Notes under the pieces: model-generated | Seen by the model: only the letters and a program-made list of their open reading frames with translations | What the model was told of the DNA's origin: nothing | Databases searched by the model: none | Shown: positions 9,886-56,737 of the stretch, piece after piece | Layout: each line of letters opens with the position of its first letter | Numbering within the stretch: position 1 is the stretch's first letter | Program-made: the position numbers and the translations under genes | Assembly: GCA_007118145.1 (NCBI GenBank) | Contig: SKSD01000056.1 | Span: forward strand, 19,851-83,850 | DNA length: 64,000 nt | Direction: 5' to 3' | Origin: Halobacteriales archaeon | Lineage (GTDB): Archaea > Halobacteriota > Halobacteria > Halobacteriales > SKSH01

Positions 9886-11646
9886 ATGACTGAGTTCTTC
9901 GAGGTCCTCGACCGTGATGGGGCAGCCCGGCTTGGTGAGCTCCGTTTGGACGAGCCATTGCAGACGCCGACGACGGTCGATGCAGTTCTCGAGGATGCTG
10001 GTTCACGCTGGGTGAATTCACGCGACGAACCCGAGGGGAGTTCAGCTACACTGACCATCCTCCCCCACCGGGGCATGCCGACAGGCACGCGAGGTGTTGT
10101 TCAGGAGGCGTTCGCCCCGTCGATACCTGACGTTACTTTCCCATCGGCTGCGGTCATCACGCCACATCTTGCTGACGACCTCGGCGCCGATGCCTACGTG
10201 TTGAGTGGCCTGACAGGTATCGATCGAGATCCCCGCCGTCTGGTCGAGGCGATCACCGAGACACGACGGGCGATCCCACCGGATACGGCATTGTACGCAC
10301 CTGGTATCGCCGAACCTGCATCCGTCGCGTTGCTCAGTTACCTCGGTATCGACCTGTTCGATACCGATCGTTCGGTCATCGCCGCCACACAGGGGCGCTA
10401 CCTCGTCTCGGAGGGTTCGATACCGGTCGAGGAGCTCGATGAGCTACCGTGTCCATGTGAGGTGTGTCGGCCGAGATCTGTGGCTGACCTCGATGTGGAC
10501 GCACTCACCCAGCACAACATCGCTCAGCTCGATGCCATGTTACGCCTCGTCCGCGAGCGTATCGGTGATGGTAGGCTCAGGGACTACCTCGAAGGTCAGG
10601 TGCGTCACCAACCCTGGTTGACCTCGGCGATGCGCCAGCTCGACCAGGAGTGGTCCTATCTCGAAGAACGCACCCCCGTCGCTCGCCAGTCAGCGATGAC
10701 GTTCACGACCGATGATGCACTTCATCGCGTCGAGGTGGTGCGTTTTGCCGATCGGCTCACCTCACGTTACCGTCCTCAGCTCGATGAGCACCCACTCGTA
10801 CTCGTCCCCTGTTCAGCGACGAAGCCATACAGTCAGTCACCGAGTCACCGTCACTTCCGAGAGGCGATCGATTTCCGCGGTCATATCGTCTCACTCACCA
10901 GCCCGTTCGGTGTCGTCCCCGACGAGCTGGAACTGGTCTATCCGGCACAGCACTATGACACGGCCGTGACTGGTCACTGGTCTGCGAGCGAGCAGGCGTT
11001 CGTCACTGATGTGCTCGAGGCATACCTCAGACGAGCGTCTTACCCACGGATCATCGCTCACGTGCCCGCAGAGGGGTACCGTAGCGTCATCCAGGAGGCT
11101 GTTGACCGGGTCGGTGGGTTCGACCTTACATTCACCGTGGTCGACCACCCGACCGATGATGACTCGCTGAGTCATCTGTCGAGTGCGCTCGAGGGTGAGT
11201 GGGCATATCGTCGGAACAGACGCTACCGTGCGATCGTGGCCGCCATAGCCGACATGCAGTTCGGACCGGGTATCGGTGCTGACCTGGTGAGCGGTGCCGA
11301 GATTGTCGGCCGTTACCCTCGGCTTCGACTCCGTGACAGAACGGATGAACAGCTGTTGACACTCGTCCCACAGTACGGTCAACTCGCGTTCACACTCGCG
11401 GGTGCACGCTGGCTGGCGGCGCATGACTCGGTCGACCATGTCGTAGCGATCGAGGGGTTCGTCCCACATGGGAGCGTCCTCGCACCGGGTGTCATCGATG
11501 CAGACCCAGCGATCCGTGTGGGTGATGAGGTACTCGTCGAGGGTCCTGCAGCGTTCGGTGTGGGCCGTGCCGCCATGTACGGAGACGAGATGGTGGAAAG
11601 TTCACGTGGCATCGCCGTCGATGTACGACACGTGCAAGAGCGATGA
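9886..11646 (+). CDS. arcS: archaeosine synthase alpha subunit ArcS (TgtA2-type, C-terminal PUA-like domain)
   Basis: TGT-like N-terminal half with LPCPCEVCR, plus a long C-terminal extension. I chose the ATG at 9886 (MTEFFEVLDRDGAARLG) over the upstream alternative start at 9856. Confidence 0.8.
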   Translation: MTEFFEVLDRDGAARLGELRLDEPLQTPTTVDAVLEDAGSRWVNSRDEPEGSSATLTILPHRGMPTGTRGVVQEAFAPSIPDVTFPSAAVITPHLADDLGADAYVLSGLTGIDRDPRRLVEAITETRRAIPPDTALYAPGIAEPASVALLSYLGIDLFDTDRSVIAATQGRYLVSEGSIPVEELDELPCPCEVCRPRSVADLDVDALTQHNIAQLDAMLRLVRERIGDGRLRDYLEGQVRHQPWLTSAMRQLDQEWSYLEERTPVARQSAMTFTTDDALHRVEVVRFADRLTSRYRPQLDEHPLVLVPCSATKPYSQSPSHRHFREAIDFRGHIVSLTSPFGVVPDELELVYPAQHYDTAVTGHWSASEQAFVTDVLEAYLRRASYPRIIAHVPAEGYRSVIQEAVDRVGGFDLTFTVVDHPTDDDSLSHLSSALEGEWAYRRNRRYRAIVAAIADMQFGPGIGADLVSGAEIVGRYPRLRLRDRTDEQLLTLVPQYGQLAFTLAGARWLAAHDSVDHVVAIEGFVPHGSVLAPGVIDADPAIRVGDEVLVEGPAAFGVGRAAMYGDEMVESSRGIAVDVRHVQER

Positions 11647-27753: not shown

Positions 27754-28860
27754 ATGCGTACAACCCCCCATTCGAACCGTCGAACGTTCCTCAAAGCAGC
27801 CGGAGTCGGTGGTGTTGCACTCCTCGCAGGATGTGTCGCCGCACCGGCGCAAGAGCCAGAGAACGGTAATTCAGATCAACCGACACAGACACCATCCAAC
27901 CAGCCGGTCGAACTCGAACCACCTCGCGAGCTTGAGATCGACTCGGTCGCTGCTGACCCCACCGGCATCCCACCACCGGTCGATTGGGACGAACCGCGGC
28001 ACCACGAGATTGAGCTCTTCACCACTGAGCGTATCGCGGAGGTCGAACCAGGCGTCACGTTCCAGTACATGACGTTCAACGACCAGATCCCCGGTCCGAT
28101 GATCCGGGTACGCCGCGGTGACACCGTCCACTTCACCCTCGAAAACCCTGAGGACCAGGGCATGTTGCACAACATCGACTTCCACGCAGTCTACGGTCCG
28201 GGCGGTGCCGCCGTGCACACGAACGTCCTCCCCGGGGAGACAGCCGAGGTTGAGTTCAAGGCGATGTACCCCGGCGTGCACATCTACCACTGCGCGGTGC
28301 CAGACATGGACTACCACATCAGCGCAGGCATGTTCGGGGCCATCCTCGTCGAGCCTGAAGACGGCCTGCCGGAGGTCGACCGCGAACTCTACTTCGGCCA
28401 GCATGAGCTGTATACGAACGGCAGTGCCGGCGAAGAGGGTCACCACAGCTTCGACATGCAGTCGATGTTCGATGAGGATCCGACCTACGTGTTGCTCAAT
28501 GCCGAGGCATACGGTTTCACCGAGAATGGCAAGCAGGGCCCGGTCATCGTTGAAAAGGGCGATCGCATCCGCGTCTTCCTCGCCAATGGTGGGCCGAATC
28601 TGACTAGTGCGTGGCACCCCATCGGAAACGTGTGGACGAACCTCTACCGTGATGGTGACCTCGTATCAGCTCCCTCCCGGTACGTCGAGACGACGCCTGT
28701 TGCACCAGGAACGGTCGCTGCTGCTGAGATGGACACACCGGTTCCCGGACCCATCAAGCTGGTCGATCACGCACTCAGCCGGGTGCGAGCCAAGGGGCTG
28801 CTCGCGGTGATCCAAGTCGAGGGCGAGGAGGAGCCGGATATCTACAATCCCAACCCATAG
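27754..28860 (+). CDS. nirK: copper-containing nitrite reductase, Tat lipoprotein
   Basis: SNRRTFLKAAGVGGVALLAGC is a Tat signal with lipobox. Copper ligand motifs HNIDFH and YHCAVPDMDYHISAGM, plus later WHPIG and LVDHAL. Confidence 0.85.
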   Translation: MRTTPHSNRRTFLKAAGVGGVALLAGCVAAPAQEPENGNSDQPTQTPSNQPVELEPPRELEIDSVAADPTGIPPPVDWDEPRHHEIELFTTERIAEVEPGVTFQYMTFNDQIPGPMIRVRRGDTVHFTLENPEDQGMLHNIDFHAVYGPGGAAVHTNVLPGETAEVEFKAMYPGVHIYHCAVPDMDYHISAGMFGAILVEPEDGLPEVDRELYFGQHELYTNGSAGEEGHHSFDMQSMFDEDPTYVLLNAEAYGFTENGKQGPVIVEKGDRIRVFLANGGPNLTSAWHPIGNVWTNLYRDGDLVSAPSRYVETTPVAPGTVAAAEMDTPVPGPIKLVDHALSRVRAKGLLAVIQVEGEEEPDIYNPNP

Positions 28861-44077: not shown

Positions 44078-44287
44078 CTATCCGACGAACACTGAGAGGA
44101 CAAGCCCCATGACGAAGATCCCGATGATGATACTGACCGCGTAGGCAATCATGAACCCGAGGGTCAACGCGATGGTCCGGAAGTATTGAGGTTTACCGAC
44201 GAACCATCCGATGAGCATGAGGTACACGGGGAGGAGAACGATACCGAAGATTACGTACAGACCGATGTGGGCGACCTCGTGTGTCAT
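44078..44287 (-). CDS. small membrane protein (2-3 TM helices) translationally coupled to the NrfD-like gene
   Basis: 69 aa. The start overlaps the upstream stop by 4 nt. Confidence 0.55.
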   Translation of the reverse strand: MTHEVAHIGLYVIFGIVLLPVYLMLIGWFVGKPQYFRTIALTLGFMIAYAVSIIIGIFVMGLVLSVFVG

Positions 44288-45591
44288 GCTTCCACCTCGG
44301 ATGGTTCGATTTCAACCAATGGAATCACCTTCGAGGCGAGCAGGAAGCCCAGCGCAACGAGGACGATCGTGCCAGAGAACAGTATCCACTCAGAGAGTGT
44401 CGGAGCGTACCATCCTGAGGGATATAGATTCGTCACCGGTGGGGAGGTGGGATGCATCAGGCCCTCCACGACGAACATAACCTTCTTGTTGAGGATAGTC
44501 ACCGCGAGGACCCCTGCGACCACGCCGATTGCGGCCACGTTGAAGAACCGCTCGGGCCACGCGATCATCGCGAACAGAGCGATGACTGACCCGATGAGGC
44601 CGGCGATGGCTATCCAGAAGAAGTGAAGCTCCAGCATGCCCGCCGTCATGGCCGCGATGTTCACTGGAGGCATGTAGTACCCGGTGAGGACGTTGTGTAG
44701 GGTGAACCAGAGGGTTCCGAGCGCGAGGAACGCCATAACGATAGCGAGATCGCGGAAGATGTGATCGTCGATGAAGTCGTGCCATCCGTAGGCGTATCTG
44801 ACAACCGCCGCTACGATGACGACACCTGCAACGGCACTCGTGAGCGACTCGGTCAACATGGCCGCACCGGCCGCAGCACCGAACCACCCGGGTTGGGCAC
44901 CGATGAGGCTGAACAACCAGGGAACGACCCCGCCAGAGAGCAGCGGGACGAGTGCGAGGATTGCAACTGCCATCCACCAAAGGATCTGCTCGATCTTCTC
45001 GTCCTCTGCCTCCGAATAACCCACGGTGATGAACGCGTAAATCGGGGTGAAGTACCGTGGCAATTGATCGCGGAGAGCGGCGATCTCAGAGCGGAGTGAG
45101 AGCGTCATATACGTCAGGGAAAGGACCAGGTACATCGACAACACCGCAATGTCCCACGCCAGGGGGGAGTGATGAACAGTCCACGGCCACATAATGATCG
45201 TGTTAAAGATTCGATCCGGTCGACCGAGATCAAGTACGACGTTGAACGCAGCCATGGCAAGTGCCAGCACGGTCAACACCTCTGCAATACGGGCGATGAC
45301 CTGGTAGCGATCGATACTGAGGACGCGCACAGCTGCGGAGATTGCGATACCTCCGTGAGCCACGCCAATCCACCAGACGAAGCCACCGATGTACAGCCCC
45401 CATGGGACCTCGCCAGAGATGCCCCAGTCACCGAGTCCAGTCACTGCGAATATGCCGTATGTGAGCTGATGGCTCCATGCCTCTAACGCAATCAAGATCC
45501 AGAGGAGCAACAGTCCGAGTACGATCCAGAACTGCCTCGTCGTCTCCTTAAGAGGCTGTAAGACCTGTTCTGCGTCGATCTCTTCGGTCAT
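44284..45591 (-). CDS. NrfD/PsrC-family polytopic membrane (quinol-interacting) subunit
   Basis: 435 aa, many TM helices, with the DLGRPDR motif typical of NrfD/PsrC proteins. 4-nt overlap with the FeS gene. Confidence 0.75.
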   Translation of the reverse strand: MTEEIDAEQVLQPLKETTRQFWIVLGLLLLWILIALEAWSHQLTYGIFAVTGLGDWGISGEVPWGLYIGGFVWWIGVAHGGIAISAAVRVLSIDRYQVIARIAEVLTVLALAMAAFNVVLDLGRPDRIFNTIIMWPWTVHHSPLAWDIAVLSMYLVLSLTYMTLSLRSEIAALRDQLPRYFTPIYAFITVGYSEAEDEKIEQILWWMAVAILALVPLLSGGVVPWLFSLIGAQPGWFGAAAGAAMLTESLTSAVAGVVIVAAVVRYAYGWHDFIDDHIFRDLAIVMAFLALGTLWFTLHNVLTGYYMPPVNIAAMTAGMLELHFFWIAIAGLIGSVIALFAMIAWPERFFNVAAIGVVAGVLAVTILNKKVMFVVEGLMHPTSPPVTNLYPSGWYAPTLSEWILFSGTIVLVALGFLLASKVIPLVEIEPSEVEA

Positions 45592-46811
45592 TCTGATTCA
45601 CCCCCGGCGAGTTCATCGATGTAATCATAATCACCATCTTGCATCCCGTGATCCTCATAGGCAACCGGGCCCTGGATCGGGTCGGCGTTCTTCGACGGCT
45701 CCATGCCGATAAAGACGATATTGGGGTCATTCCCCTTCTCCTCAAGTAGTTTGAACTGATTCGCCTCCCCCTTCTCTTGGAGGTACCGTCGTGGATCGCT
45801 GTGGGGATTGTTCATGTCGCCGAAATGGATTACACCGAACGGACATGCCTGCTCACAGGCTGTCGTCCCACGAAGCTCGGGGTCATCGGCGTCCTGGCGA
45901 TGGACGCAGAATGTGCATTTCCCCATGACGCCAGCCGGGGGAGGACCACCGACGGGTTTACCGTCACGTCCAATCCTGTCACCATCGAACCCGTCAGATA
46001 TCTCTTCGTTAGGCTCATCGCTGCCGAGGTAGTTGACCCCGTACGGACAGGCCACTTGACAATATCGACAGCCGATACACAGGTCGTAATCTGTCAGCAC
46101 AACGCCGTCCTCAGTCCGTTTGTACCGTGCCTGTGTCGGGCATACATACGTGCAGGTGGGTTCAGAGCAGTGCTGACAGTGACGGGTGAGATATCCCTCC
46201 CGCGTCCCGCCCGCATGCTCGTCCTCGTAGCGAAAGACGTACGGCCAGTGCACGCCGATGTCGGTATCGTTCTCCTCCTTACATGCCAGCGAGCACTGGA
46301 GACAGGCGACACAGCGTTCAGTATCGACCACCATCCCAAGCTGTTTTCTGTGAGGTATCTCGTCGATAATCCCCTCGTCGGTTACCTCACCGTCGATATC
46401 GTCTCGGATCTCTGATTCGCCGCCGAGGGTGTCCTCGAGCGAGGCATCAGTCCCGATACAACCGGCAAGACCCGTTGTCCCGGCAATCGATAGGCCACCA
46501 AGTGCTTTCAACACGCGCCGTCGGGACCGCCCGTCCGTATCGGGAACCTTGGGGAGCGGTTCGGATTCGTCACTTTCTCGCCCCGCCGACCGTCGTGTAG
46601 GGCGTTCGTCGATACCGAACTCCGACTGGACTGCCTCCGTGTACCGCTCATGGAATTCGGCCTTCGAGAGCCCCCCTTTCGCGATGCTCAGGGCGTCCTC
46701 GGCCATCTCTCTCCCAAGCTGGATGTCGAAGCCGCTACCGTCCAGTTGCTCTTCGACCCAGTCGTCCCAGCCTGGTTCATTCGGGTCAGGGGGTAAGTCC
46801 ATGGATTCCAT
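45588..46811 (-). CDS. NrfC/PsrB/DmsB-type 4x[4Fe-4S] protein with a Tat motif preceded by a ~95-aa N-terminal domain
   Basis: Four Cys clusters: CVACLQCSLAC, CQHCSEPTCTYVCP, CIGCRYCQVACP and CTFC...CEQACP. GRSRRRVLKALGGLSIAGTTGLAGC lies at residues ~94-118. Confidence 0.8.
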   Translation of the reverse strand: MESMDLPPDPNEPGWDDWVEEQLDGSGFDIQLGREMAEDALSIAKGGLSKAEFHERYTEAVQSEFGIDERPTRRSAGRESDESEPLPKVPDTDGRSRRRVLKALGGLSIAGTTGLAGCIGTDASLEDTLGGESEIRDDIDGEVTDEGIIDEIPHRKQLGMVVDTERCVACLQCSLACKEENDTDIGVHWPYVFRYEDEHAGGTREGYLTRHCQHCSEPTCTYVCPTQARYKRTEDGVVLTDYDLCIGCRYCQVACPYGVNYLGSDEPNEEISDGFDGDRIGRDGKPVGGPPPAGVMGKCTFCVHRQDADDPELRGTTACEQACPFGVIHFGDMNNPHSDPRRYLQEKGEANQFKLLEEKGNDPNIVFIGMEPSKNADPIQGPVAYEDHGMQDGDYDYIDELAGGESE

Positions 46812-47104
46812 TCAGCAAGTCACTGGCTCCAACTTATGTGCGAAGGACCGAGAAACAATCTTTGAAAACTACAGTCTTTTATAACCTCTGCAGTGCCGTG
46901 GATACTTACCGTCGGTCTGGCGATGTCGTAACGTGGCGTTGCGAAGCTGGCCGGTTATTGAAAGTAACCGAGCGCAAGCCCACGGCTTCAGCCGTGGGAG
47001 GCTGTCAATCTCACCCGGATGGACCGCCATTTCTGGCGTCGATTTAAAGGTCTTAATACTACAAACAAGAGGTTTCCTGGCGCTGTCTCCATTATTCGAC
47101 GAGG

Positions 47105-48445
47105 ATGAGTGACAATAACGCTTCCCCGGAAGGAGATGAGCCGGGAGTCGGTTCGGCGATTGACCTCGTGAACCGCGATGGTCCGGTAGATAGTTCACGA
47201 CGAAAATTCATGCTGGCCGGCGCTGCCACCTGGGCGTCGATATCTCTAGCGGGGTGCACGGATTTGTTGAGCAACGAGGAGGAACCCGAGGAGACGGTAC
47301 CCCATTTCGTCGTGACCGACGAGGTATTTGCTGGATCGGCAGGTATCCCCGAAGGTGCGGAGGGATTTTTCGTCCCAGGCCAACCGCTCAGAGCATTCAT
47401 CCCGGGGATGCAAGCGGTATTCAAAATCGGCGTCTGGGATCCAGAAACGGGTGCCATCGTGAGCGACGTCGCTCTCGACGAGGTCTTGGTCGATCTCGAT
47501 AGGGCCGAGGAGATCGAGCTCATCTTCGCACGCAACGACCGAGAATGGACCGGTGACTGGAACATCCCCGAAGATGAGGAAACTGGGACCGTGACGTATG
47601 AGGTCAGCGTCACGAACGCAGCGGAATTCACCCAGGTTGGGATCGCGGAGAACGAGCTAGAAATTGTCGACTTTCAACCACTGTTCACGAGCTACGTAGT
47701 GACCGACGACACGTACGCGACGGAGACCAGAGCAGGCGGGTACGTCCAATCGTGTCTACCCCAACACAATTTTTCCTCAGATATGGCCATCGGGTTCGAC
47801 ATCGGCATCTACGATGGGTCGACCGGGGACCCGGTCGGGCCCGATACCGTCGATGAGGTCGTCATCGAGTTCGAGGTGGGCGAGCCATCGACGATGGAGC
47901 TCGAGTGGGACGAGGACGACGAGCTCTGGAACAACGTCTGGAGGGGCACCCCGGACGATTTCACCGGGACGCTCACCTACGAGGTGCAGGTGACCAACGA
48001 GGCTGAGTTTAACCAGGTAGGCGTCTACCAGGGGTCGGTCGAGATTATCGACGCAGCAGCCGATCCGACAGCGACGTACGTGGTGACGGATGATACGTAT
48101 TCGACCGAGACCCGGGCAGATGGGTTCGTGCAGTCATGCTTGCCCCAGCACACGTTCACCCCCGAGATGCCAGTCGGGTTCGACATCGGCATCTACGATG
48201 GGTCGACTGGGGACCCGGTCGGGCCTGATACCGTCGACGAGGTGGTCATCGAATTCGAGGTGGGCGATCCATCGACGATGGAGCTCGAGTGGGACGAGGA
48301 CGACGAGCTCTGGAACAACGTCTGGAGGGGCATCCCGGACGATTTCACCGGGACGCTCACCTACGAGGTGCAGGTGACCAACGCGGGCGAGTTCTATCGC
48401 GTAGGCGTCTATCAGGGATCGTTCCAAGTCATCGAAGAGCCGTAG
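47105..48445 (+). CDS. Tat lipoprotein built from three ~128-aa repeats, unknown function
   Basis: DSSRRKFMLAGAATWASISLAGC. A GTG at 47168 would give a canonical signal (MNRDGPVDSSRRKF...). Units 2 and 3 are near-duplicates. Confidence 0.7.
   Translation: MSDNNASPEGDEPGVGSAIDLVNRDGPVDSSRRKFMLAGAATWASISLAGCTDLLSNEEEPEETVPHFVVTDEVFAGSAGIPEGAEGFFVPGQPLRAFIPGMQAVFKIGVWDPETGAIVSDVALDEVLVDLDRAEEIELIFARNDREWTGDWNIPEDEETGTVTYEVSVTNAAEFTQVGIAENELEIVDFQPLFTSYVVTDDTYATETRAGGYVQSCLPQHNFSSDMAIGFDIGIYDGSTGDPVGPDTVDEVVIEFEVGEPSTMELEWDEDDELWNNVWRGTPDDFTGTLTYEVQVTNEAEFNQVGVYQGSVEIIDAAADPTATYVVTDDTYSTETRADGFVQSCLPQHTFTPEMPVGFDIGIYDGSTGDPVGPDTVDEVVIEFEVGDPSTMELEWDEDDELWNNVWRGIPDDFTGTLTYEVQVTNAGEFYRVGVYQGSFQVIEEP
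47693..48445 (+). repeat. in-frame tandem duplication, period 384 bp
   Basis: 47792-47999 versus 48176-48383 differ at 7 of 208 positions by my count. The 5' ~100 nt of each unit are much more diverged. Confidence 0.85.
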
Positions 48446-48620
48446 CCAACCTAGAGGTGTCGACGCGTAGCAGCGATAGTGCGTCGTCTCCATCCATGCG
48501 AGTTAGCCTATGTTCCAGTCTGTCTGGCGGCTTTTGCAGGAGCCTTGGAATGTGTCTTAAATAAGGCTGTAATATCGGTACGAACGACCATTGGCGTTTC
48601 CAGATAATCTGGAATCGACA

Positions 48621-49280
48621 ATGGATGCCCACCAGCGAATGGATCACGTCTCCGAGGATTCAACCGGAGAGGCGATTCGAACGACGGTCGATAAGGTTGT
48701 CGCGGCAGGGCAGTTACTCGCCTCACCGCGAAAGTGTGCCACCTGGCACGAATGCTGGCTTTACGACGGTCTGACCATTCAGGATATCGCCGAGCATACC
48801 GGTATCCCACAAAGCACCACGTACGACCTCACTCGGGAGATGACCGCCGAGGGAAGCCTCTTCAGCGTCGGAACCACGGCATCGAACGCCTCCATCATGA
48901 AACCCACTTCGATGCAGTTTTTCGTCTCAAGCCATCCAGAGGGGATTGGGCCCCAATACAACGTACACAGCACGTTGATCGGTGTACTCGGACGAGGCAC
49001 AACGACGGATGATGTTGAGACGTTTCTGGAACGAAACAACTACACCCAGCTTTCGGAGGCAATCACCGGTGTCCTTTCTATCCTCTCCAACGAGGACATC
49101 GAGATGCCTCTCGAATCGCATTTCGGATGGATGAAATCGATTGATGCCCGTCTCATCGAGGGTCACATCGCGGCAGTCCTCGAACTCGAATCACACGCCC
49201 CTGGAATCGAATGGGTGTTTCCCCTCAATCCCAGGATTCAGCCTGCATCCGGTGATAACGACCGAGAGGTGATCCCATGA
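48621..49280 (+). CDS. putative HTH transcriptional regulator
   Basis: LTIQDIAEHTGIPQSTTYDLTREMTAEGSL is HTH-like. I prefer the ATG at 48621 over the TTG at 48591. The family is not identified. Confidence 0.5.
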   Translation: MDAHQRMDHVSEDSTGEAIRTTVDKVVAAGQLLASPRKCATWHECWLYDGLTIQDIAEHTGIPQSTTYDLTREMTAEGSLFSVGTTASNASIMKPTSMQFFVSSHPEGIGPQYNVHSTLIGVLGRGTTTDDVETFLERNNYTQLSEAITGVLSILSNEDIEMPLESHFGWMKSIDARLIEGHIAAVLELESHAPGIEWVFPLNPRIQPASGDNDREVIP

Positions 49281-50443
49281 GACCGGACCTCGACCATGGA
49301 TATGCACCTGATGAGCCTCGGACTCATACAACCGACACACCAAGGATAACTGCAGAATCATTATCGGTGAGTCCCACACGCCGGACCTTTCTCACCACAG
49401 TTGCCCTCGGGGTTGGGGCTGTCAGCGGTTGCCTGGGATCAAACCGATCTGATGACTATCGATCAGTGACGTATCGCCATCGGTTCGATCGAAGTGGGAT
49501 TGGGTCTGCGGTGTACGATGGAGGGGTTGAACTCGGATCGTGGGAGGCGCACGAGCTCGATGTCGAGTTCAAGATATCCTCCGGTTCGAGAGCGGCGGCA
49601 CAATCGGTCGATGGCGGCCAGGATGATTTCGCGAACGCCGAAATCGCAGCGGTGTTGTCGCTGATTGATGCAGGTGCGCCCTTGACGATACTCGCCCAAG
49701 AGACCACGCCGATGGGTGGGGTGATTACGCTTCGTGAGACGGGTATATCCTCATGGACTGATTTGGCAGGGGTCGAGGTGGGGCGGTTTCCGTGGGGCGT
49801 CACGGGGCAACTGGCGGAAGCTGCGATTACGTCCGAGGGAGGTGACCCCAATGCGGTCGAGTGGCGTAACGTCGAACCCGGTGCACACATTCAGTTACTC
49901 TTGGAGGGAGCCATCGACGGGGCCGTCGCTTACTATCCGCAAGCCGTAACTCGCCTTGAGTTGGCTGGCCATGAGACGCAAGTCCTGCCACTTGGGACCG
50001 TGCTCGATCACCTCGGTAACGCCCTCATCACCCGTCAGGAGATCGTTGACGAGCACCCGGAGGTCGTCGAACGATTTGTTCGTGGATGGCTCGATGCCCA
50101 TGACACGTTCATCTCACGGACCGACGACGTCATCGACGTTCATCGAGATTTGGTACCTAATTTCGATGAAACAGTCGAGCGAGAAGTCCTGCCACTGATT
50201 CTCGCCTCGCGAATCGCACCCGAGACCGACCTCGAATCGGGTATGGGCTGGACGCCGATTGAACGGATGACCAATACGCTGGATATTCTCGAGCAAATCG
50301 ATATGCTCTCATCGGCTGATACACCGGAGACTTACTTCACGAACCGGTTCATCGAAGAGTCACAGGATCGGGCGATAGATATTGCTGAGCGGTATGCACA
50401 GACGCTCGAACAGGATTATGATATCGAACCGACGGCAGTATGA
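49277..50443 (+). CDS. ABC transporter substrate-binding lipoprotein, NitT/TauT (NMT1/SsuA-like) family
   Basis: TRRTFLTTVALGVGAVSGCLG is a Tat signal with lipobox. The ATG at 49277 overlaps the upstream stop (ATGA). A GTG at 49367 would give a conventional signal peptide. Confidence 0.7.
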   Translation: MRPDLDHGYAPDEPRTHTTDTPRITAESLSVSPTRRTFLTTVALGVGAVSGCLGSNRSDDYRSVTYRHRFDRSGIGSAVYDGGVELGSWEAHELDVEFKISSGSRAAAQSVDGGQDDFANAEIAAVLSLIDAGAPLTILAQETTPMGGVITLRETGISSWTDLAGVEVGRFPWGVTGQLAEAAITSEGGDPNAVEWRNVEPGAHIQLLLEGAIDGAVAYYPQAVTRLELAGHETQVLPLGTVLDHLGNALITRQEIVDEHPEVVERFVRGWLDAHDTFISRTDDVIDVHRDLVPNFDETVEREVLPLILASRIAPETDLESGMGWTPIERMTNTLDILEQIDMLSSADTPETYFTNRFIEESQDRAIDIAERYAQTLEQDYDIEPTAV

Positions 50444-51234
50444 ACACGATCGACGGTACCAAGGTGTGGTCGGGCATCACCAGGTTCATCCCACGTTCCT
50501 TACACGAAGCGACGTGGCCACTGGCGATCCTGATAGTGCTTATCGGCGCCTGGGAGGTGGCCATACCCGTCCTCGACGTCCCTGGATACATCCTTCCCCC
50601 ACCATCGGCCGTTGCCTCGGCGTTTGTTGACCACCACCCAACCATTTTCGACGCCTTACTCGTCACGCTGCAGGCATTCGCCATCGCATTCGGTTTGACG
50701 GTCCTCACGGGGTATGTGCTTGCCCTCGCAATGTACGAGTGGACGCCCCTTGAGAAGACGGTATATCCGTACGTCATCGCCGCTCGGGCCATCCCGATTG
50801 TAGCGTTGATTCCAATCTTTGTTATCTGGTTCGGCTTCGGGTTTCGGTCGATCGTGATAATCAGCTACCTCATCAGCGTCTTCGCCATGGTCGTCAACTC
50901 ACTCGCTGGCTTCAAATCGACTGATCCGAAGATCATCGAGATGCTCGACAGTTTCTCTGCGTCTCGTTGGGATCGCTTTCGCCATGTGCACCTGTATGGC
51001 TCGATGCCGCTCGTCCTGGCGGGCACAAAGATTTGCGTCATTCTTGCATTCACGGGCGTCATCGTCGGAGAGTTCCTCATCGGAACGGAGGGGATCGGCT
51101 ATCTGATCATGTCATACAATAGTACGTTTGACACGGCGCCGATGTTTGCTGGCATCGTGACTATCGCCGTTACCCAGTTAAGCCTCTTCGGCGCGGTTGT
51201 GCTGCTTGAACGGTCCCTCATCACCTGGCGATAA
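50440..51234 (+). CDS. ABC transporter permease (NitT/TauT family)
   Basis: 264 aa with about 6 TM helices. ATGA overlap with the SBP gene. Confidence 0.75.
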   Translation: MNTIDGTKVWSGITRFIPRSLHEATWPLAILIVLIGAWEVAIPVLDVPGYILPPPSAVASAFVDHHPTIFDALLVTLQAFAIAFGLTVLTGYVLALAMYEWTPLEKTVYPYVIAARAIPIVALIPIFVIWFGFGFRSIVIISYLISVFAMVVNSLAGFKSTDPKIIEMLDSFSASRWDRFRHVHLYGSMPLVLAGTKICVILAFTGVIVGEFLIGTEGIGYLIMSYNSTFDTAPMFAGIVTIAVTQLSLFGAVVLLERSLITWR

Positions 51235-51261
51235 CGACACCGTTTCGTTGTCACCTGCCGA

Positions 51262-52035
51262 TTAGGTGGTGAGCAGGCCAAGTTCGGCCCGAAGCTCCTG
51301 CTTTAACGCACCGTAACGCCGTGAAGTTTCAATCTCTCGCCGTCGATCGGATCGGGGACGATCGAAGTTGAGGGGAATGTATCTGAGTACCCTGCTCGGA
51401 CGATGCGAGAGAACCACGACGCGGTCGCCCAGAAGTAGCGCTTCATCGATGTCGTGTGTTACAAAAATCACGGTCTTATCGCCGTCCCACAATTGGAGTA
51501 ACTCAGATTGCATACGGTCTTTGGTTTGGGCATCCAAAGCCCCGAACGGTTCGTCCATCAGGAGGACAGCCGGATCCGTTGCGAGTGCCCGTGCCAGCCC
51601 TACACGCTGTTTCATTCCCCCCGAAAGATCGGAGGGATACGCGTCGATCATGTCGGACAGACCCACCCGTTCGATCCACTCCTTCGCTATAGCTGTCCTC
51701 CTTTTCGCCCCATAGCCATGTTGCACGGTTAACCCGAGGGCGACGTTCTCAAGGACGGACTTCCACGGGAGCAGGACGAACTCCTGGAACACCATCGAAA
51801 TATCCTCACGTTGGCCATCGACCGGGTCGTCATCGACGGTGATCCATCCGGAGGTTGGCTCGACCAGCCCAGCGATGGCCTTCAAGAGGGTCGTTTTTCC
51901 ACAACCAGACGGCCCGAGAACGACTAGGAACTCATCTTCATCGACTGCAAATGATAAGTCGTGTAACACGGGATCTGGCTGGTGATTCGATTGATAGGTG
52001 TAGGAGACGTCGGAGAGGGTGATCGAATGGCCCAT
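51262..52035 (-). CDS. ABC transporter ATP-binding protein (NitT/TauT family)
   Basis: Walker A GPSGCGKTT, signature LSGGMKQR, Walker B LLMDEPFGALD. Confidence 0.85.
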   Translation of the reverse strand: MGHSITLSDVSYTYQSNHQPDPVLHDLSFAVDEDEFLVVLGPSGCGKTTLLKAIAGLVEPTSGWITVDDDPVDGQREDISMVFQEFVLLPWKSVLENVALGLTVQHGYGAKRRTAIAKEWIERVGLSDMIDAYPSDLSGGMKQRVGLARALATDPAVLLMDEPFGALDAQTKDRMQSELLQLWDGDKTVIFVTHDIDEALLLGDRVVVLSHRPSRVLRYIPLNFDRPRSDRRREIETSRRYGALKQELRAELGLLTT

Positions 52036-52038
52036 GAA

Positions 52039-52623
52039 TCAACCCTCTAGCTGATGCGCTCGCAGGCACCCCTGCGTATCTGAAGCATCTTCCTCATCGC
52101 CCTGACGTTCGTGGAAATATTGCTCGAGGTTCTCGAAGTATCGATTGACATCGGACTCCACGATCGGTCGCAATAACCCTGGCGTGAGGACGGCGGATCC
52201 TCCCTCGAAGGTGAGATTCGCCCGATATGCGAGTTCGGTCGCCTCATCAGAGGATCGCGACATCTGGAGTGCTGCCGTACCGGTGAATACCGAGTGTGTC
52301 CGGGAATCATAGGCGTCGCCCTTGATCACGACCCAGTTCGGTTCTTCTTTCTCCACAATTTCTACTGTCCCATCGATGCTGAGGGTGAGCCGACTGACCG
52401 ATCGGGTGACATCGAGTGAATACCTCGTATCAGATTGGCGTGTGATGTCATTCGATCCAGGGATGCATGTCGCCAAAAACGCAGGATCCTCAATCTGACG
52501 CCAAAGGTCATCCCGATCACCCTCGATGACGACCCGATCTTCGAACACGAGTTGACGCCCTGTCTCCACTGCTGTCGCCTCCATGACCTCGGCTGCTTCA
52601 GACGCTCGATCACCCTCAGTCAC
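52039..52623 (-). CDS. CoxG/SRPBCC-family protein
   Basis: 194 aa. ...DLWRQIEDPAFLATCIPG...LTLSIDGTVEI... fits the CoxG pattern. Its stop is 3 nt from the ATPase start. Confidence 0.6.
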   Translation of the reverse strand: MTEGDRASEAAEVMEATAVETGRQLVFEDRVVIEGDRDDLWRQIEDPAFLATCIPGSNDITRQSDTRYSLDVTRSVSRLTLSIDGTVEIVEKEEPNWVVIKGDAYDSRTHSVFTGTAALQMSRSSDEATELAYRANLTFEGGSAVLTPGLLRPIVESDVNRYFENLEQYFHERQGDEEDASDTQGCLRAHQLEG

Positions 52624-52698
52624 GATACACCACCCTTGGGGACGGATTTTCCGGGTGTACTATCCGAGTTCCACCTGCGTCACGTGAACACCGTATGC

Positions 52699-54144
52699 TC
52701 ATTGTTCCGTGATCTCGAATGCGAGATGCATGGCCGGAAGTGCTCGCACCGGGTGATTGTTCTGATACGAGAGGTGTGCTTTTTCGCCGACATCCGGAAG
52801 CTCTTCTTTGGTCTCGAAGAAGCTTGGGTACACGTCGATGAAGTGCCATCCCGGTTCGCCACATGCACGCAGCTTCGTTCGAACCACCCCAACGTCCTTT
52901 TCCATGTCGACCCCACACACGTAGCCAAGTGAGCGATTGTCATATACGAAGAAGTAGGCGTTCTCGTAAGTCGGCCAACCGATGCCCGTGAGTTCGATGT
53001 CGATTTCCGTTCCGACCGGCCCACTCGTCGGTTCAAACGTGACGATATCCGGTTGCATGACGAAGCCTGTCACGGCCACTTTGGTCCCGCCGACCTCTGC
53101 GACGATTGGCCGTGTCCCCCCCATTCCATTTGGAATGGTCAGATCGAGCGAGAACGCCCCGGATTCATCGGTCGTCACCGTGGGAAGTACATCCTCGCGT
53201 GGTTCGGGCTCGATGGGGGTCCCCGCCACGCGGTTTCCGACGTGGGTATACCATGTAAGGTCGACCGTTGTACTGGGTGGGAACGCTCGGCCGTGAAGAC
53301 GTGCCGAGGTGCCGGGTTGACCGGATGTCGGCATGATCTCAAGTGTCGCATCGGATTCCACATCGAGTGATGGGAGATGTGAGGCAAGTGGCTCTTCGCT
53401 CACGAGCGAATCCATTGATGTCGACTCAGGCGGGTTTTCCGGTGGTTCCACGGTCACCGTCCATACGGATTGTCGCCCCCCTGCTACAGGCCCGAACGGC
53501 GATTGTGTGTTATTCTGGAGAAACGGGACGCCTCGGAGATTTCGCCACACTTGAATCACGTGATCTCCGGGTGGACCGGTGGCACGAATCTTCGCCGTCG
53601 CCGTGCCGTTGTTCATCGTTCCGGTCATGAATCCAACTACCCCGTTGTCCCAGGCGATTTGGTAGTTGTTCGTGATAGCATTCGGCCCGAGGCCGTAACC
53701 TGTGATGGTGAACGAGTCCCCCAGTTTCGCTCGCGTGGTGTCGAGTTCGAACCAGGGCACTATCGTCACTGAGGTCTTGGCCACTACCTCCCCGGCGGTC
53801 GTCTGTAGCTCGATCCGATGGTCGCCGCCGTAATCCTCGGGGAGTGCCCACTCGTAGGTGACGGTCCCATACGCATCCGTAGAAATTGTATCGATCACCT
53901 CAGAACGGTGTTGGAACTGTGGTCCGATGACCTCGTTCCCTTGCACGATGCCCCAGCCACCCCTGGCGGTGTGCCAGACGATGTCGAGTGGTTCGTCGGG
54001 TGGTAGCTCGCGACCATGGAGGGTGATGTGATCACCGATGTAGGCGGTCGAATCACTCACCACCGCGGTACCTCTGGTTGCATTCTGGGTGTGCTCATCC
54101 AGCTTCGAAGCTGTCTCTGATGATAGACCGGGATTCTTCCTCAT
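52699..54144 (-). CDS. 481-aa protein of four Ig/IPT-like repeats with no signal peptide, unknown function
   Basis: A repeating pattern recurs: GDHITLHGRELPP, LGDSFTITGYGLGP, GQPGTSARLHGRAFPP, GPVGTEIDIELTGIGWP. The N-terminus is polar with no hydrophobic segment. Confidence 0.6.
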   Translation of the reverse strand: MRKNPGLSSETASKLDEHTQNATRGTAVVSDSTAYIGDHITLHGRELPPDEPLDIVWHTARGGWGIVQGNEVIGPQFQHRSEVIDTISTDAYGTVTYEWALPEDYGGDHRIELQTTAGEVVAKTSVTIVPWFELDTTRAKLGDSFTITGYGLGPNAITNNYQIAWDNGVVGFMTGTMNNGTATAKIRATGPPGDHVIQVWRNLRGVPFLQNNTQSPFGPVAGGRQSVWTVTVEPPENPPESTSMDSLVSEEPLASHLPSLDVESDATLEIMPTSGQPGTSARLHGRAFPPSTTVDLTWYTHVGNRVAGTPIEPEPREDVLPTVTTDESGAFSLDLTIPNGMGGTRPIVAEVGGTKVAVTGFVMQPDIVTFEPTSGPVGTEIDIELTGIGWPTYENAYFFVYDNRSLGYVCGVDMEKDVGVVRTKLRACGEPGWHFIDVYPSFFETKEELPDVGEKAHLSYQNNHPVRALPAMHLAFEITEQ

Positions 54145-54427
54145 CGTTACGTATTGAGAGTGTATCCACCGTGGTCGGTGCTTCGCTGGGATATTAAGGC
54201 CTTTAAGAACACCTCGATCAGCGCCCAGCGAGAGGTGATGTGACGACTGGTGGTCAACGGTGATACTCCGGCATCCTACCCTCGACAGGTATCACGCAAC
54301 AAGCCCACCGGTGGTTGTGAGCTTGTGTGTCCAAATGAACCAATGTCGACAGCGACCACACCACCGTCGATCCCGCGAATCCATCGGAGATCGGTTCACC
54401 GTGTACGTTGCCTCGCTGTGGTATCTG

Positions 54428-55303
54428 TCACGGAGGGCTACCGCCTGGCCAATCCTCCTCCGCAAATTTGCCACTTTCCAGGGAGAAGTCGTCACGAGGG
54501 AAACCCTGACAGGTCAGTGTGTATCCGTCCTGTAACGCTGCATCGTCCAGATATTCGTAGTCGTTCACCTCCAGATGGACGAGCTCGCGGGTGTCGCCAT
54601 CGACCTGTGCGAGGCATTGTCCACACCAGCCCTCGCGACAGCGATATGGCAGTTCGAAGCCGCGTTCTTCGCCCGCGACTAGGAGACTTTGATCCTCCGG
54701 GACCTCTATTGTCCAGCGTTCGTTCACGTAGTCGATTGTGTGTGTCGCCTCGATTGTGCCATCGACCTCATCGTCATCGTCGTCATCGACGACGAGCGCC
54801 CCAACCTGACCGGTCTGGAGGGAGAAGTCGCTTCGAGGGTAGCCCGTGCACGTCAGCACATATCCATCCTCGATGGCGCGGTCGTCCAGCGGGTCGTACT
54901 TGTTGATAGTCATGTGGACGAGCTCGTGACCGTCACCGTCAACGCGGGCGAGACACTGTCCACAGAAACCCGTCCTGCAGAAGTAGGGAAGATCCCAGCC
55001 CTGTGCCTCCCCGGCCTCTAGCAGATTTTCATTCCCGGCCACCTCGATGGTATCCTCTTCGTTCTCGAATGTGATGTCGAACCGGTCCTCGATACCTACG
55101 ATTGGTGCCTCCCGAGGTGACGGCTCGCCGAACACACCTAAACAGCCGGCCAACGCAAACGAGCCACCCGCGGCCATCAATCCGAGGACTTCGCGACGAT
55201 GCGAAGTGAGTGGAGTAGCGTCGCATGAGTTACCCTTGTTTTTACAGGAGCGACCGTTTTGACAGTGGCCCTCCTCACCGTGGCAGTTCCGCTCCTCGTT
55301 CAT
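54428..55303 (-). CDS. Tat lipoprotein with two plant-type [2Fe-2S] ferredoxin domains and a Cys/His-rich pre-signal segment
   Basis: SHRREVLGLMAAGGSFALAGC. Two copies of C-x4-C-x2-C...C: FCRTGFCGQC...LTCTG and RCREGWCGQC...LTCQG. The N-terminus is NCHGEEGHCQNGRSCKNKGNSC. Confidence 0.75.
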   Translation of the reverse strand: MNEERNCHGEEGHCQNGRSCKNKGNSCDATPLTSHRREVLGLMAAGGSFALAGCLGVFGEPSPREAPIVGIEDRFDITFENEEDTIEVAGNENLLEAGEAQGWDLPYFCRTGFCGQCLARVDGDGHELVHMTINKYDPLDDRAIEDGYVLTCTGYPRSDFSLQTGQVGALVVDDDDDDEVDGTIEATHTIDYVNERWTIEVPEDQSLLVAGEERGFELPYRCREGWCGQCLAQVDGDTRELVHLEVNDYEYLDDAALQDGYTLTCQGFPRDDFSLESGKFAEEDWPGGSPP

Positions 55304-55619
55304 ACGTCCACTACGGGACGCTAATGGCGTTGCAATTAGCCTTTAGTATGAAGTCATATTTGTACGGCCACCAGTCACGAACGCATCGCCGTGATTGTCC
55401 CGTCCGATAGGGGAACCGATATACCACGCAGTGTTGATACCCGATAGGCACTGTCAGGTGCTCTCTCCAATCGTGTTACTCATAGCACCGAAGCCGTGCG
55501 CCACCGGAACTCAGCGAGGGCGAGAACGGATAAATCGTCTGAACGATGCGAGGTCGCCCTCGCCGAACCATGTGCAATCCCATCTGACCTGGTCTTACGA
55601 CAGGTTTCTCACACGTCCG

Positions 55620-55961
55620 CTAGGCAACGTCTGAGGTTTCTTGGGAATCTTGTCTGGCCGAACCCTCTATTAAAGGACCCCATAGGGCAGCTGTGAGGCC
55701 GTTACTTCTTTGCTCCAGTGCGGAGAGGTTTTCGGAGACGGTTTCGCTTTCAAGGAACTCTCGACACCCCGTGAGGTTATCGAACACGAACACCAGTTTG
55801 TACCGATTGGTCTCCACGTCGTACTCGCGATACAAGCGAAAGCCATGTACACCAACGGAGGTACCAAGACCAGTAGTCACCTCTGAGAACCACGGGACCC
55901 TAAACTCCTCATCAACCAGCTCGAACTCGATCTCATAGATGATCGCGCCATCGAGGTTCAT
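55620..55961 (-). CDS. hypothetical protein (113 aa)
   Basis: ATG-initiated with plausible composition. No motif recognised. Confidence 0.45.
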   Translation of the reverse strand: MNLDGAIIYEIEFELVDEEFRVPWFSEVTTGLGTSVGVHGFRLYREYDVETNRYKLVFVFDNLTGCREFLESETVSENLSALEQRSNGLTAALWGPLIEGSARQDSQETSDVA

Positions 55962-56077
55962 GACTGGTGAGCAGTGGTCGCAAGGGGGGTCGTGGTGACT
56001 GACACGGACGTACCTTCGAGCAAGGACTCAGTCAATCTCTGGCTGGATACTTGATGGTTTTATTGCTAATGTACAGC

Positions 56078-56737
56078 TCAGGGAACGTTACCATCTACTC
56101 TATAGAGCGCACGAACAAGCGTTGATTCGGCTGAGTTGAGTCGCTGTGAGACCGCCGATTGCGATACCCCGATATGCTCGGCGAGTTCGGCAAGATCTGC
56201 CCTGCGGGGACTGTCATAATAGCCTGATTCAATAGCAGCCTCGATGGCTTCACGCTGTTTCTCCGTGACGAGGTCAGCATCGAGTTCGAGCGTTCTCGTC
56301 CCATCGGTTCGATCTTTCAATGGTAGGATGCTTTCGAGCGTGACGACCGCTCCTCGCGCTCGAAGCCCTTCGATGATATCGCGGAGGATTTGGCGATTGG
56401 GCACCGTCACAGCAACGAACAGGCAATCGGCGCGAAACGACCTGATATCAACGACACAATCCGTCTCGGAAAATACCGGACAGACACAGTAGTCAGTTAC
56501 CGTCGAAGCGACGAATCGTCTCCTACACTCACCATCGTCAGAGACCTTCACCTCGGCCCGACACCCAGGGGTAGTCTCACCTTTCGGCCTCACATCGTTT
56601 CGATGGATATCGTCACCTCGCGGCCCACTGTCGAGTATTGCACATGCTGCCTCCGACGAAACTTCGACACATAGGCGAGCAGTCAGTGACCGGTCGCTGT
56701 CTCGATCCCTACTGGAAGGAGCGGTCCGGGAGGCCAT
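56078..56737 (-). CDS. Bat-type (HTH_10) transcriptional regulator
   Basis: C-terminal LTEKQREAIEAAIESGYYDSPRRADLAELAEHIGVSQSAVSQRLNSAESTLV. Confidence 0.8.
   Translation of the reverse strand: MASRTAPSSRDRDSDRSLTARLCVEVSSEAACAILDSGPRGDDIHRNDVRPKGETTPGCRAEVKVSDDGECRRRFVASTVTDYCVCPVFSETDCVVDIRSFRADCLFVAVTVPNRQILRDIIEGLRARGAVVTLESILPLKDRTDGTRTLELDADLVTEKQREAIEAAIESGYYDSPRRADLAELAEHIGVSQSAVSQRLNSAESTLVRALYRVDGNVP

Follow-up and report, generated by a model that had tools for sequence, protein, structure and literature searches.

What would a plant-type ferredoxin, a class of protein known as soluble intracellular electron carriers, be doing on the outside of an archaeal cell, held there by a lipid anchor and genetically tied to a quinone-linked membrane module? 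This question is raised by a gene in a 64,000-nucleotide stretch of DNA from a Halobacteriales archaeon (NCBI GenBank assembly GCA_007118145.1, contig SKSD01000056.1, positions 19,851 to 83,850 of the forward strand), which we call the window and number from its first letter. The gene lies at 54428..55303 on the minus strand and encodes a predicted precursor in which a cysteine-rich leader, a twin-arginine (RR) signal and a lipobox precede two [2Fe-2S] ferredoxin domains. From sequence, conservation and gene linkage, which are the basis of all functional claims made here, we think it probable that this tandem ferredoxin serves a quinone-linked complex of the NrfC/NrfD type as its outward-facing module for electron transfer; its leader may act before export.

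Judged by profile matches and by a predicted fold, both domains are plant-type [2Fe-2S] ferredoxins with all eight ligand cysteines in place. A first-pass annotation, made from the sequence alone, had described two domains of about 95 residues, each with a C-x4-C-x2-C motif and a distal cysteine, joined by an acidic linker, and this description held up: the ligands read C109-x4-C114-x2-C117...C152 in the first domain and C222-x4-C227-x2-C230...C265 in the second, the two domains are 56% identical, and the linker between them has the core VVDDDDDDEVD. The PF00111 scan that the annotation had proposed returned two Pfam Fer2 matches (E = 4e-26; 91 bits against a cut-off of 21), and TIGR02008 (fdx_plant) scored 118 bits against a cut-off of 81. 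Classical soluble ferredoxins are single domains of about 100-130 aa that lack a signal peptide; with two domains, a signal and only 81 bits for the haloarchaeal Fer equivalog NF041393 (cut-off 150), the protein falls outside that class. Fer2_2 (PF01799) gave no match at E values up to 1, so that it does not have the make-up of a small subunit of the xanthine oxidase type. An AlphaFold2 model built on 30 homologues contains two confident beta-grasp domains with a predicted local distance difference test (pLDDT) value of about 90, while residues 1-66 and the linker are disordered. All eight ligand cysteines are invariant in 30 sequences, whereas the annotation would have been contradicted had they varied, and the mature region has on average 8.1 Cys per protein, essentially the ligands only.

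In fold (Foldseek template-modelling score about 0.8), in sequence (33-42% identity to the matches in the PDB) and in the C-x4-C-x2-C...C ligand pattern of each domain, the protein resembles cyanobacterial and plant ferredoxins of the PetF type (PF00111, TIGR02008). All PDB matches from the sequence and Foldseek searches were to single-domain proteins, and no tandem ferredoxin was among them. The window protein differs from PetF in being a tandem (its relatives have one or three domains as well), in carrying a twin-arginine translocation (Tat) signal and a lipobox, in the gap before the fourth cysteine (34 residues rather than the 29 of PetF), and in its genetic linkage, which is with membrane respiratory genes and not with partners of the photosystem I or ferredoxin-NADP reductase kind.

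The export signal was read codon by codon. Residues 34-54 are SHRREVLGLMAAGGSFALAGC, in which the twin arginines are followed by an uncharged stretch (V39-G53) that ends in the lipobox L51-A52-G53-C54, with Cys54 encoded by TGT at 55142..55144 (codons checked by hand); the RR motif, hydrophobic core and lipobox that had been placed at about residues 35-55 are thus all confirmed. The sequence has the features of a Tat substrate, namely an invariant R36/R37 pair and an uncharged core after it that are conserved across homologues, and the Tat pathway transports folded, cofactor-loaded proteins. Across 30 sequences, with 40-96% identity to the window protein, neither the RR nor the Gly-Cys of the lipobox nor any of the eight ligand cysteines varies, and Tat export and lipid anchoring, both claimed by the first-pass annotation, are on this pattern of conservation well supported. 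L51-A52-G53-C54 also conforms to the archaeal lipobox, which by definition reads [LVI][ASTVI][GAS]C and closes the signal (PMC12462473), and Cys54 is predicted to be the lipidated first residue of the mature ferredoxin. Haloarchaeal lipoproteins are mainly routed through Tat and carry thioether-linked archaeol on the lipobox cysteine (PMC12462473), and the combination of a twin-arginine signal with a lipobox is thus the normal haloarchaeal lipoprotein route and an ordinary feature.

The translation start matters here because it decides whether the leader is made at all. The open reading frame (ORF) begins with ATG at 55303, and the only in-frame ATG, GTG or TTG triplets within its first 60 codons are codons 1, 42, 43, 51 and 57; as had been noted before, none lies between the leader and the RR. 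Because no start codon occurs between codons 1 and 42, translation of the RR has to start at codon 1, the ATG at 55303; a product that uses the RR must therefore be translated with its cysteine-rich leader.

A search of 5.8 billion proteins found 38 relatives, of which about 29 are full-length tandem proteins of 40-95% identity. The organisms named among them are all haloarchaea (Halalkaliarchaeum sp. AArc-CO, Natronorubrum daqingense and Halapricum hydrolyticum), and the database names are generic ("ferredoxin" or "2Fe-2S iron-sulfur cluster-binding protein"). Most relatives are tandem, and single-domain (P0032-P0034), triple-domain (P0002) and ferredoxin plus C-terminal Rieske (P0040) architectures also occur; RR and lipobox are present in every one of these. 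P0040 joins the same leader, signal and ferredoxin domain to its Rieske domain, and Rieske domains are as a rule redox modules outside the cytoplasm. A pattern scan of a genome collection recovered only 14 loci, a figure that depends on exact peptide patterns and serves taxonomy rather than a census, and a tblastn search of a plasmid collection found single-domain cytoplasmic ferredoxins only and no full-length relative. PF24042 (DUF7351), which appeared on two homologues, was set aside as below its cut-off and overlapping the ferredoxin domain rather than the leader. A family already described in function would have undone the annotation's case; we found no functional description, and the open-access literature that we searched yielded nothing on an exported tandem ferredoxin or on the locus tags of the corresponding cluster in Halodesulfurarchaeum formicicum. 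The genome paper of that organism lists the orthologue HTSR_1558 as a "soluble [2Fe-2S] ferredoxin" and makes no comment on the cluster.

The cysteine-rich leader

The segment ahead of the RR contains, as had been stated for the window protein, a C-x6-C-x5-C-x6-C pattern and three histidines (His8, His13 and His35). Four cysteines in 35 residues have a binomial probability of 5e-5 at the local background of 0.59% Cys, and across 30 family members Cys accounts for 94 of 939 pre-RR residues (10%), 17-fold above the 0.59% found in twelve neighbouring genes whose products are not iron-sulfur (Fe-S) proteins. When the homologues were aligned, as the first-pass annotation had proposed, the cysteines proved to be a family trait and the histidines did not: 27 of 29 homologues, each anchored on its own RR, have two to four Cys within the 26-42 residues ahead of it, whereas the His residues are not conserved even in a 95%-identical homologue. 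Thus the segment, which had been called Cys/His-rich, should be called Cys-rich.

The typical arrangement is C-x5-C-x5-C-x4-C or C-x5-C-x4-C, often with Asp or Glu after a Cys and with the last Cys 3-4 residues before the RR. The single-domain relatives P0032-P0034 have their leader cysteines in C-x2-C spacing. A leader-only alignment of 23 sequences, which share just 30-49% identity, has Cys in every sequence at the positions of Cys20 and Cys27; the third leader Cys of the family is Leu32 in the window protein, where two extra cysteines upstream keep the count at four. Such a pattern fits selection for a certain number of thiols better than selection for an exact geometry.

The leader also appears to be confined to one kind of cargo. 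An exhaustive search of 1.84 billion representative proteins with a profile of leader plus signal gave only 15 proteins at E < 1e-3, and every genuine match was on ferredoxin-domain (Fer2) cargo; the other Tat lipoproteins of the window have no pre-RR Cys. Since the profile matches only ferredoxin-domain cargo, the leader is specific to it and is not shared by haloarchaeal Tat lipoproteins at large. As read from its reading frame and conservation, then, the leader is a translated and selected part of the signal peptide, specific to Fe-S cargo. Cys-rich pre-RR leaders had no precedent in the open-access literature that we searched. We tentatively suggest, by analogy with other Tat signals (below), that the leader may act before export, either by holding a metal or Fe-S cluster transiently or as a docking site for a maturation or proofreading factor.

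Comparable elements occur on the NrfC-like proteins encoded with the ferredoxin (next section). Among 118 NrfC-like homologues, 30 have Cys/Gly-rich pre-RR stretches with 2-8 Cys, looser than the ferredoxin leader and located either at the extreme N-terminus or between a PF16947 domain and the RR; SACSCDDGNCACGTGGCACGSGKC in P0128 is an example, and others are found in P0116, P0121, P0135, P0138, P0162 and P0180. By these sequence features the system repeatedly places what are probably extra cytoplasmic elements upstream of the Tat signals of Fe-S proteins. Pre-RR Cys are absent from six of the eight NrfC-like proteins that are linked to a Cys-leader ferredoxin. A strict complementarity, in which either the ferredoxin or its NrfC-like neighbour has the Cys-rich leader, was considered and dropped, as N. 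daqingense has both and two lineages have neither; there is a tendency only.

Linkage to an NrfC/NrfD-type core

The gene neighbourhood was compared across those loci that have enough flanking DNA, about 13 lineages and the window. In every one of these lineages the ferredoxin gene lies within a few kb of genes for an NrfC-like protein (360-450 aa) and an NrfD-like protein: Halalkaliarchaeum sp. AArc-CO (L001/L002) and H. desulfuricum (Halalkaliarchaeum; L026), N. daqingense (L003/L004), four metagenome contigs (L005/L006, L023, L024 and L025), Halovenus (L007, L008), Halapricum (L009-L011, of which L010 is Halapricum hydrolyticum) and H. formicicum (L021). Loci of the Cys-leader clade also have a gene for a hydrophobic membrane protein of about 70 aa. 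A 70-aa ORF stands directly after the nrfD-like gene in L001, L003, L005 and L023-L027. As a rule a DmsR_N/HTH_10 regulator accompanies the ferredoxin cluster, whose genes commonly run in the order nrfC, nrfD, 70-aa gene, ferredoxin gene. In the window (44078..56737) the order differs: some 8 kb with genes of a conserved accessory set separates the ferredoxin gene from nrfC, which suggests a rearrangement, and the NrfC-like, NrfD-like and 69-aa genes are 8-11 kb from the ferredoxin gene.

NrfD-family proteins are quinone-interacting membrane subunits, and NrfC-type proteins relay electrons on the outer face of the membrane, as in Psr, Dsr, Qrc, alternative complex III and Nrf. The adjacent window genes give Fer4_11 and NrfD Pfam matches above the cut-offs, as expected of an NrfCD pair. 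They do not belong to any named subfamily (DsrOP, Qrc, Ttr, Arr, Psr or Nrf), for all equivalog scores are far below their cut-offs: the best models for the NrfC-like protein are DsrO (132 bits against a cut-off of 200), ArrB, QrcC and TtrB, and those for the NrfD-like protein are DsrP (74 bits against a cut-off of 350) and HmcC. A molybdopterin subunit or cytochrome c gene, either of which is a usual partner in complexes of the NrfCD type, was absent from the window ORFs that we scanned (18 in 40-64 kb and 10 of the largest in 1-40 kb) and from the related loci. Ahead of its own RR the window NrfC-like protein has a 65-aa PF16947 "Ferredoxin_N" domain (residues 10-72), which had no match in a PDB sequence search and is presumably a conserved, folded, cytoplasmic element upstream of the Tat signal.

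The core is more widespread than the ferredoxin. The NrfC-like family has more than 1,100 members at E < 1e-20, many of them from Natrialbales, and the core occurs without the ferredoxin in Natronosalvus vescus (L027), where it lies beside an EB_dh-domain protein, and in Natronorubrum bangense (L028), where there is no extra module. Because the core is thus found with an EB_dh protein or with nothing, NrfC, NrfD and the 70-aa protein together look like a modular core, for which the tandem ferredoxin would be one of several exchangeable outward-facing modules. The open-access literature searched contained nothing on haloarchaeal NrfCD modules.

Several departures from the common arrangement were seen in Halapricum. 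At 11110..12132 of L010 a 340-aa polytopic membrane subunit, which tblastn with the window NrfD did not detect, is encoded between the ferredoxin gene and nrfC, and the NrfC-like protein of this locus has no lipobox. Given this short membrane subunit and the lipobox-less NrfC-like protein, the subclade without leader cysteines, to which Halapricum belongs, differs in several subunits at once.

Proteome data for H. formicicum give spectral counts on sulfur, thiosulfate and dimethyl sulfoxide (DMSO), respectively, of 1/0/0 for the ferredoxin orthologue HTSR_1558, 1/1/0 for the NrfD-like HTSR_1557 and 8/11/1 for the immunoglobulin (Ig)-like lipoprotein HTSR_1555, and the 481-aa protein and ATP-binding cassette (ABC) transporter binding protein of its accessory genes were detected in DMSO-grown cells only. 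Expression of the ferredoxin cluster during sulfur respiration is, on these counts, at trace level.

Proposed role, precedents and alternatives

In the route that we favour, the precursor would be made from the ATG at 55303 with its 35-residue leader, its two clusters would be inserted in the cytoplasm, and the twin-arginine pathway would move the folded ferredoxin across the membrane. Lipidation of Cys54 and cleavage of the signal peptide, leader included, would leave a mature acidic ferredoxin tethered on the outside of the membrane, in a complex with the 69-aa subunit, the NrfD-like protein and the four-cluster protein of the NrfC type. Such a complex would connect the menaquinone pool electrically with a partner outside the cytoplasm, with the ferredoxin extending the electron wire of the NrfC-like protein; in this complex free of haem and molybdenum, the ferredoxin would fill the place that multihaem cytochromes c (DsrJ, ActA/ActE, QrcA and NrfB) hold in bacterial relatives. 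The leader would couple export to prior cofactor loading, through metal or Fe-S binding or the docking of a factor, and this is the weakest step. The DmsR-type regulator suggests control by oxygen or redox state. The first-pass annotation had pictured an extracellular di-cluster electron carrier; export and the two Fer2 domains bear this out as far as sequence can, while a free carrier is unlikely given the link to an NrfC/NrfD module in the loci examined.

The Fer2 domain, Tat lipoproteins and NrfCD modules are each already known, and each offers a precedent for part of this scheme. In bacteria, NrfCD modules work with a periplasmic cytochrome c, as in DsrJ-DsrOP, ActA/ActE-ActBC (alternative complex III), QrcA-QrcCD and NrfB-NrfCD. 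The haloarchaeal set is like these in that a Tat-exported four-cluster protein and an NrfD-family protein are encoded with a membrane-tethered outer electron-transfer protein with several redox centres, and unlike them in that this protein would carry [2Fe-2S] clusters instead of haems, in having no molybdopterin subunit that we could find, and in adding a membrane subunit of about 70 aa and a PF16947 domain ahead of the RR of the NrfC-like protein. PaoA (YagT), from the periplasmic aldehyde oxidoreductase of Escherichia coli, is a Tat-exported protein with two [2Fe-2S] clusters, in Fer2 and Fer2_2 domains, that belongs to a molybdo-flavoenzyme. It provides a precedent for the export of a protein with two such clusters, one of them in a Fer2-type domain; the window protein differs in that both of its domains are plant-type Fer2 with no Fer2_2 match, and no genes for molybdenum or FAD subunits were found among the neighbouring ORFs scanned. 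Halocyanin, a blue copper electron carrier that haloarchaea anchor by a lipid, shares with the ferredoxin a Tat signal, a lipobox, a place at the outer membrane face and the role of one-electron carrier (PMC8305020, PMC12462473). Its cofactor and fold are different. To our knowledge, no halocyanin has a Cys-rich pre-RR leader. For the leader the working analogy is with Tat signals that are bound by dedicated cytoplasmic chaperones (TorA-TorD, DmsA-DmsD, NapA-NapD and HybO-HybE), which have a role before export in coordinating cofactor loading with transport; those signals are not Cys-rich, however, and no chaperone gene is conserved across the ferredoxin loci examined. A Mrp/ApbC-type Fe-S carrier was considered as a dedicated maturation partner and rejected, since its gene follows the operon in only L003 and L028. 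Three things appear to be new, as judged from the sequences compared: an exported lipoprotein made of tandem plant-type ferredoxin domains, its constant pairing with an NrfC/NrfD core free of molybdenum and haem, and the conserved Cys cluster ahead of the RR.

Several observations weigh against the scheme of a quinone-linked complex with a leader that acts before export. Plant-type [2Fe-2S] clusters usually have very low potentials, a poor fit with quinol oxidation unless they are tuned, and gene linkage to nrfC and nrfD is not proof of a physical association. The RR, at residues 36-37, comes later than in most Tat signals, and rule-based predictors such as TatFind, with its positional window, may miss it. 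The proteome support for the ferredoxin orthologue is a single spectral count. Spacing of the leader cysteines varies and the leader is predicted by AlphaFold2 to be disordered, and a subclade formed by Halapricum and Halodesulfurarchaeum keeps RR and lipobox with no leader Cys at all; because these organisms retain the system without them, the leader cysteines are not essential to it in general.

Four other explanations were weighed against this scheme. The first, unlikely in our estimate, makes the ferredoxin a free extracytoplasmic reductase or shuttle that would pass electrons straight to an acceptor outside, such as Fe(III), Cu(II), sulfur or polysulfide, and that would at most be recharged by the NrfC- and NrfD-like proteins. 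A flexible acidic linker and a lipid tether would suit a swinging carrier, the cluster is located in sulfur-respiring haloarchaea, copper ATPase and TRASH regulator genes adjoin it in two lineages, and the Ig-like lipoprotein, which has a conserved Cys, is a frequent neighbour; but it is linkage to nrfC and nrfD that holds in all loci examined, and not linkage to copper genes or to the Ig-like lipoprotein, both of which are missing from L001, L003 and L026 within the 6-8 kb of flank examined, and the family is also found in N. daqingense and Halalkaliarchaeum sp. AArc-CO, which are believed to be aerobes. We give a similarly small chance to the idea that the signal is never cleaved, so that the hydrophobic segment would be the anchor of a single-span membrane protein and the leader a lasting cytoplasmic metal or Fe-S site. 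Conserved leader cysteines would imply a lasting function, discarding a 65-aa, folded-looking domain ahead of the NrfC-like RR would seem wasteful, and the Tat signal anchors of Rieske proteins are known to remain uncleaved. Against these stand the members without leader Cys, which still keep the lipobox, the physical implausibility of a haem-free redox link across the membrane, and the invariant Gly-Cys of the lipobox, which predicts lipidation and cleavage as in haloarchaeal lipoproteins and halocyanin (PMC12462473).

Less probable again is a leader whose cysteines have no function of their own and represent a tolerated composition of a disposable n-region, or serve only to tune charge or translation. 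One would then expect the variable number (2-4) and spacing of the cysteines, their absence from two subclades and the predicted disorder of the region; one would hardly expect a 17-fold enrichment over the local background, two columns that stay invariant at a leader identity of 30-49%, a window protein that keeps its Cys count by replacement positions, or the independent recurrence of the trait in NrfC-like partners. Finally, we regard it as highly improbable that this is an ordinary soluble cytoplasmic ferredoxin with a fortuitous RR and lipobox, which is what the database names and the entry in the H. formicicum paper would imply: every family member keeps the RR, the hydrophobic core and the lipobox, no start codon drops the signal while keeping the rest, and the haloarchaeal ferredoxin model reaches barely more than half its cut-off (81 bits against 150).

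If the tandem ferredoxin is indeed the outer module of an NrfC/NrfD-type complex, its meaning would reach beyond this locus. Haloarchaea are generally without cytochromes c, and an outer electron wire based on ferredoxin would show that respiratory branches can be built without haem c in organisms that largely lack it. The pre-RR Cys cluster, if functional, would be a new feature of Tat signal peptides with a bearing on how Fe-S proteins are loaded before export. About one third of haloarchaea have no bc1 complex, a gap that has been named an open problem (PMC8305020), and a testable candidate to fill it is the core of NrfC, NrfD and the 70-aa protein. Ferredoxins of the present family occur too rarely to account for the missing bc1 in general. 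A bolder proposal has two linked parts, namely that Cys-rich pre-RR segments are a cis-acting metal or Fe-S checkpoint on the Tat signals of exported archaeal Fe-S proteins, and that the core with its exchangeable modules is a haem-free quinol:acceptor oxidoreductase replacing bc1; it seems to us a doubtful one.

Accessory and remaining genes of the window

The features of the window are collected in Table 1.

Table 1. Coordinates of the ferredoxin gene, its parts and the genes around it (window numbering).
Feature	Position	Strand	Remarks
Whole precursor ORF	54428..55303	-	291 aa plus stop: Cys-rich leader, Tat signal, lipobox, two [2Fe-2S] ferredoxin domains
Pre-RR leader, residues 1-35	55199..55303	-	Cys7, Cys14, Cys20, Cys27 (C-x6-C-x5-C-x6-C)
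Twin-arginine codons, Arg36 and Arg37 (CGT CGC)	55193..55198	-	invariant in 30 sequences
Hydrophobic core and lipobox, EVLGLMAAGGSFALAGC	55142..55192	-	Gly53 and Cys54 invariant; Leu51 and Ala52 at least 90% conserved
Ferredoxin domain 1, about residues 72-170	54794..55090	-	ligands Cys109, Cys114, Cys117, Cys152
Acidic, disordered interdomain linker, VVDDDDDDEVDGT	54755..54793	-	pLDDT < 50 for residues 175-183
Ferredoxin domain 2, about residues 184-281	54461..54754	-	ligands Cys222, Cys227, Cys230, Cys265
NrfC/DsrO-like 4Fe-4S protein, inferred partner	45588..46811	-	own RR (about residues 96-98) and own lipobox
NrfD/DsrP-like integral membrane protein, presumed quinone-interacting subunit	44284..45591	-	NrfD Pfam match
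Hydrophobic 69-aa protein, two apparent hydrophobic stretches (by eye)	44078..44287	-	directly after the nrfD-like gene
DmsR_N/HTH_10 transcription regulator	56078..56737	-	conserved next to the ferredoxin gene
Tat lipoprotein, three Ig/macroglobulin-like repeats, 446 aa	47105..48445	+	divergent from the nrfC-like gene; conserved accessory
Accessory block after the HTH protein	49277..54144	.	ABC transporter, CoxG-like and 481-aa genes
NMT1-type ABC transporter	49277..52035		accessory block
CoxG-like protein	52039..52623	-	accessory block
481-aa protein, no family match, no signal peptide	52699..54144	-	accessory block

With the gene for the HTH protein, the accessory stretch spans 48591..54144. 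The full accessory set (Ig-like lipoprotein, HTH protein, ABC transporter, CoxG-like protein and 481-aa protein) recurs in L010 and L021, and L005 and L023 have the part from the lipoprotein to the ATPase, both of these sequences ending inside the ATPase gene. The Ig-like lipoprotein had no family match; its AlphaFold2 model has three beta-sandwich repeats, with one invariant Cys (C217), and its homologues are found in sulfur-respiring haloarchaea. As a clue to the substrate it was rejected, since it matches only generic macroglobulin/Ig domains and offers no functional lead.

Copper genes, namely a P-type ATPase with HMA domains, an HMA chaperone and a TRASH regulator, adjoin the cluster in L005 (10582..13618) and L010 (4950..8681). 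Copper-handling genes are next to the cluster in these two unrelated lineages only and are absent from the window and the other loci, and a copper link through CopA and the TRASH regulator is on this count a side observation only.

The C-terminal tail EEDWP(G/S)GSPP, at 54431..54460 (-), is shared by the window ferredoxin and its closest relatives (P0001 and P0003-P0005) and is absent elsewhere in the family. The remaining genes of the window are ordinary chromosomal ones, among them those for archaeosine tRNA-guanine transglycosylase, CetZ and SAICAR synthetase. A 368-aa ORF at 27754..28860 (+) has the multicopper-oxidase domains Cu-oxidase_3 and Cu-oxidase_2, and may encode a copper redox enzyme located in this same cell envelope.

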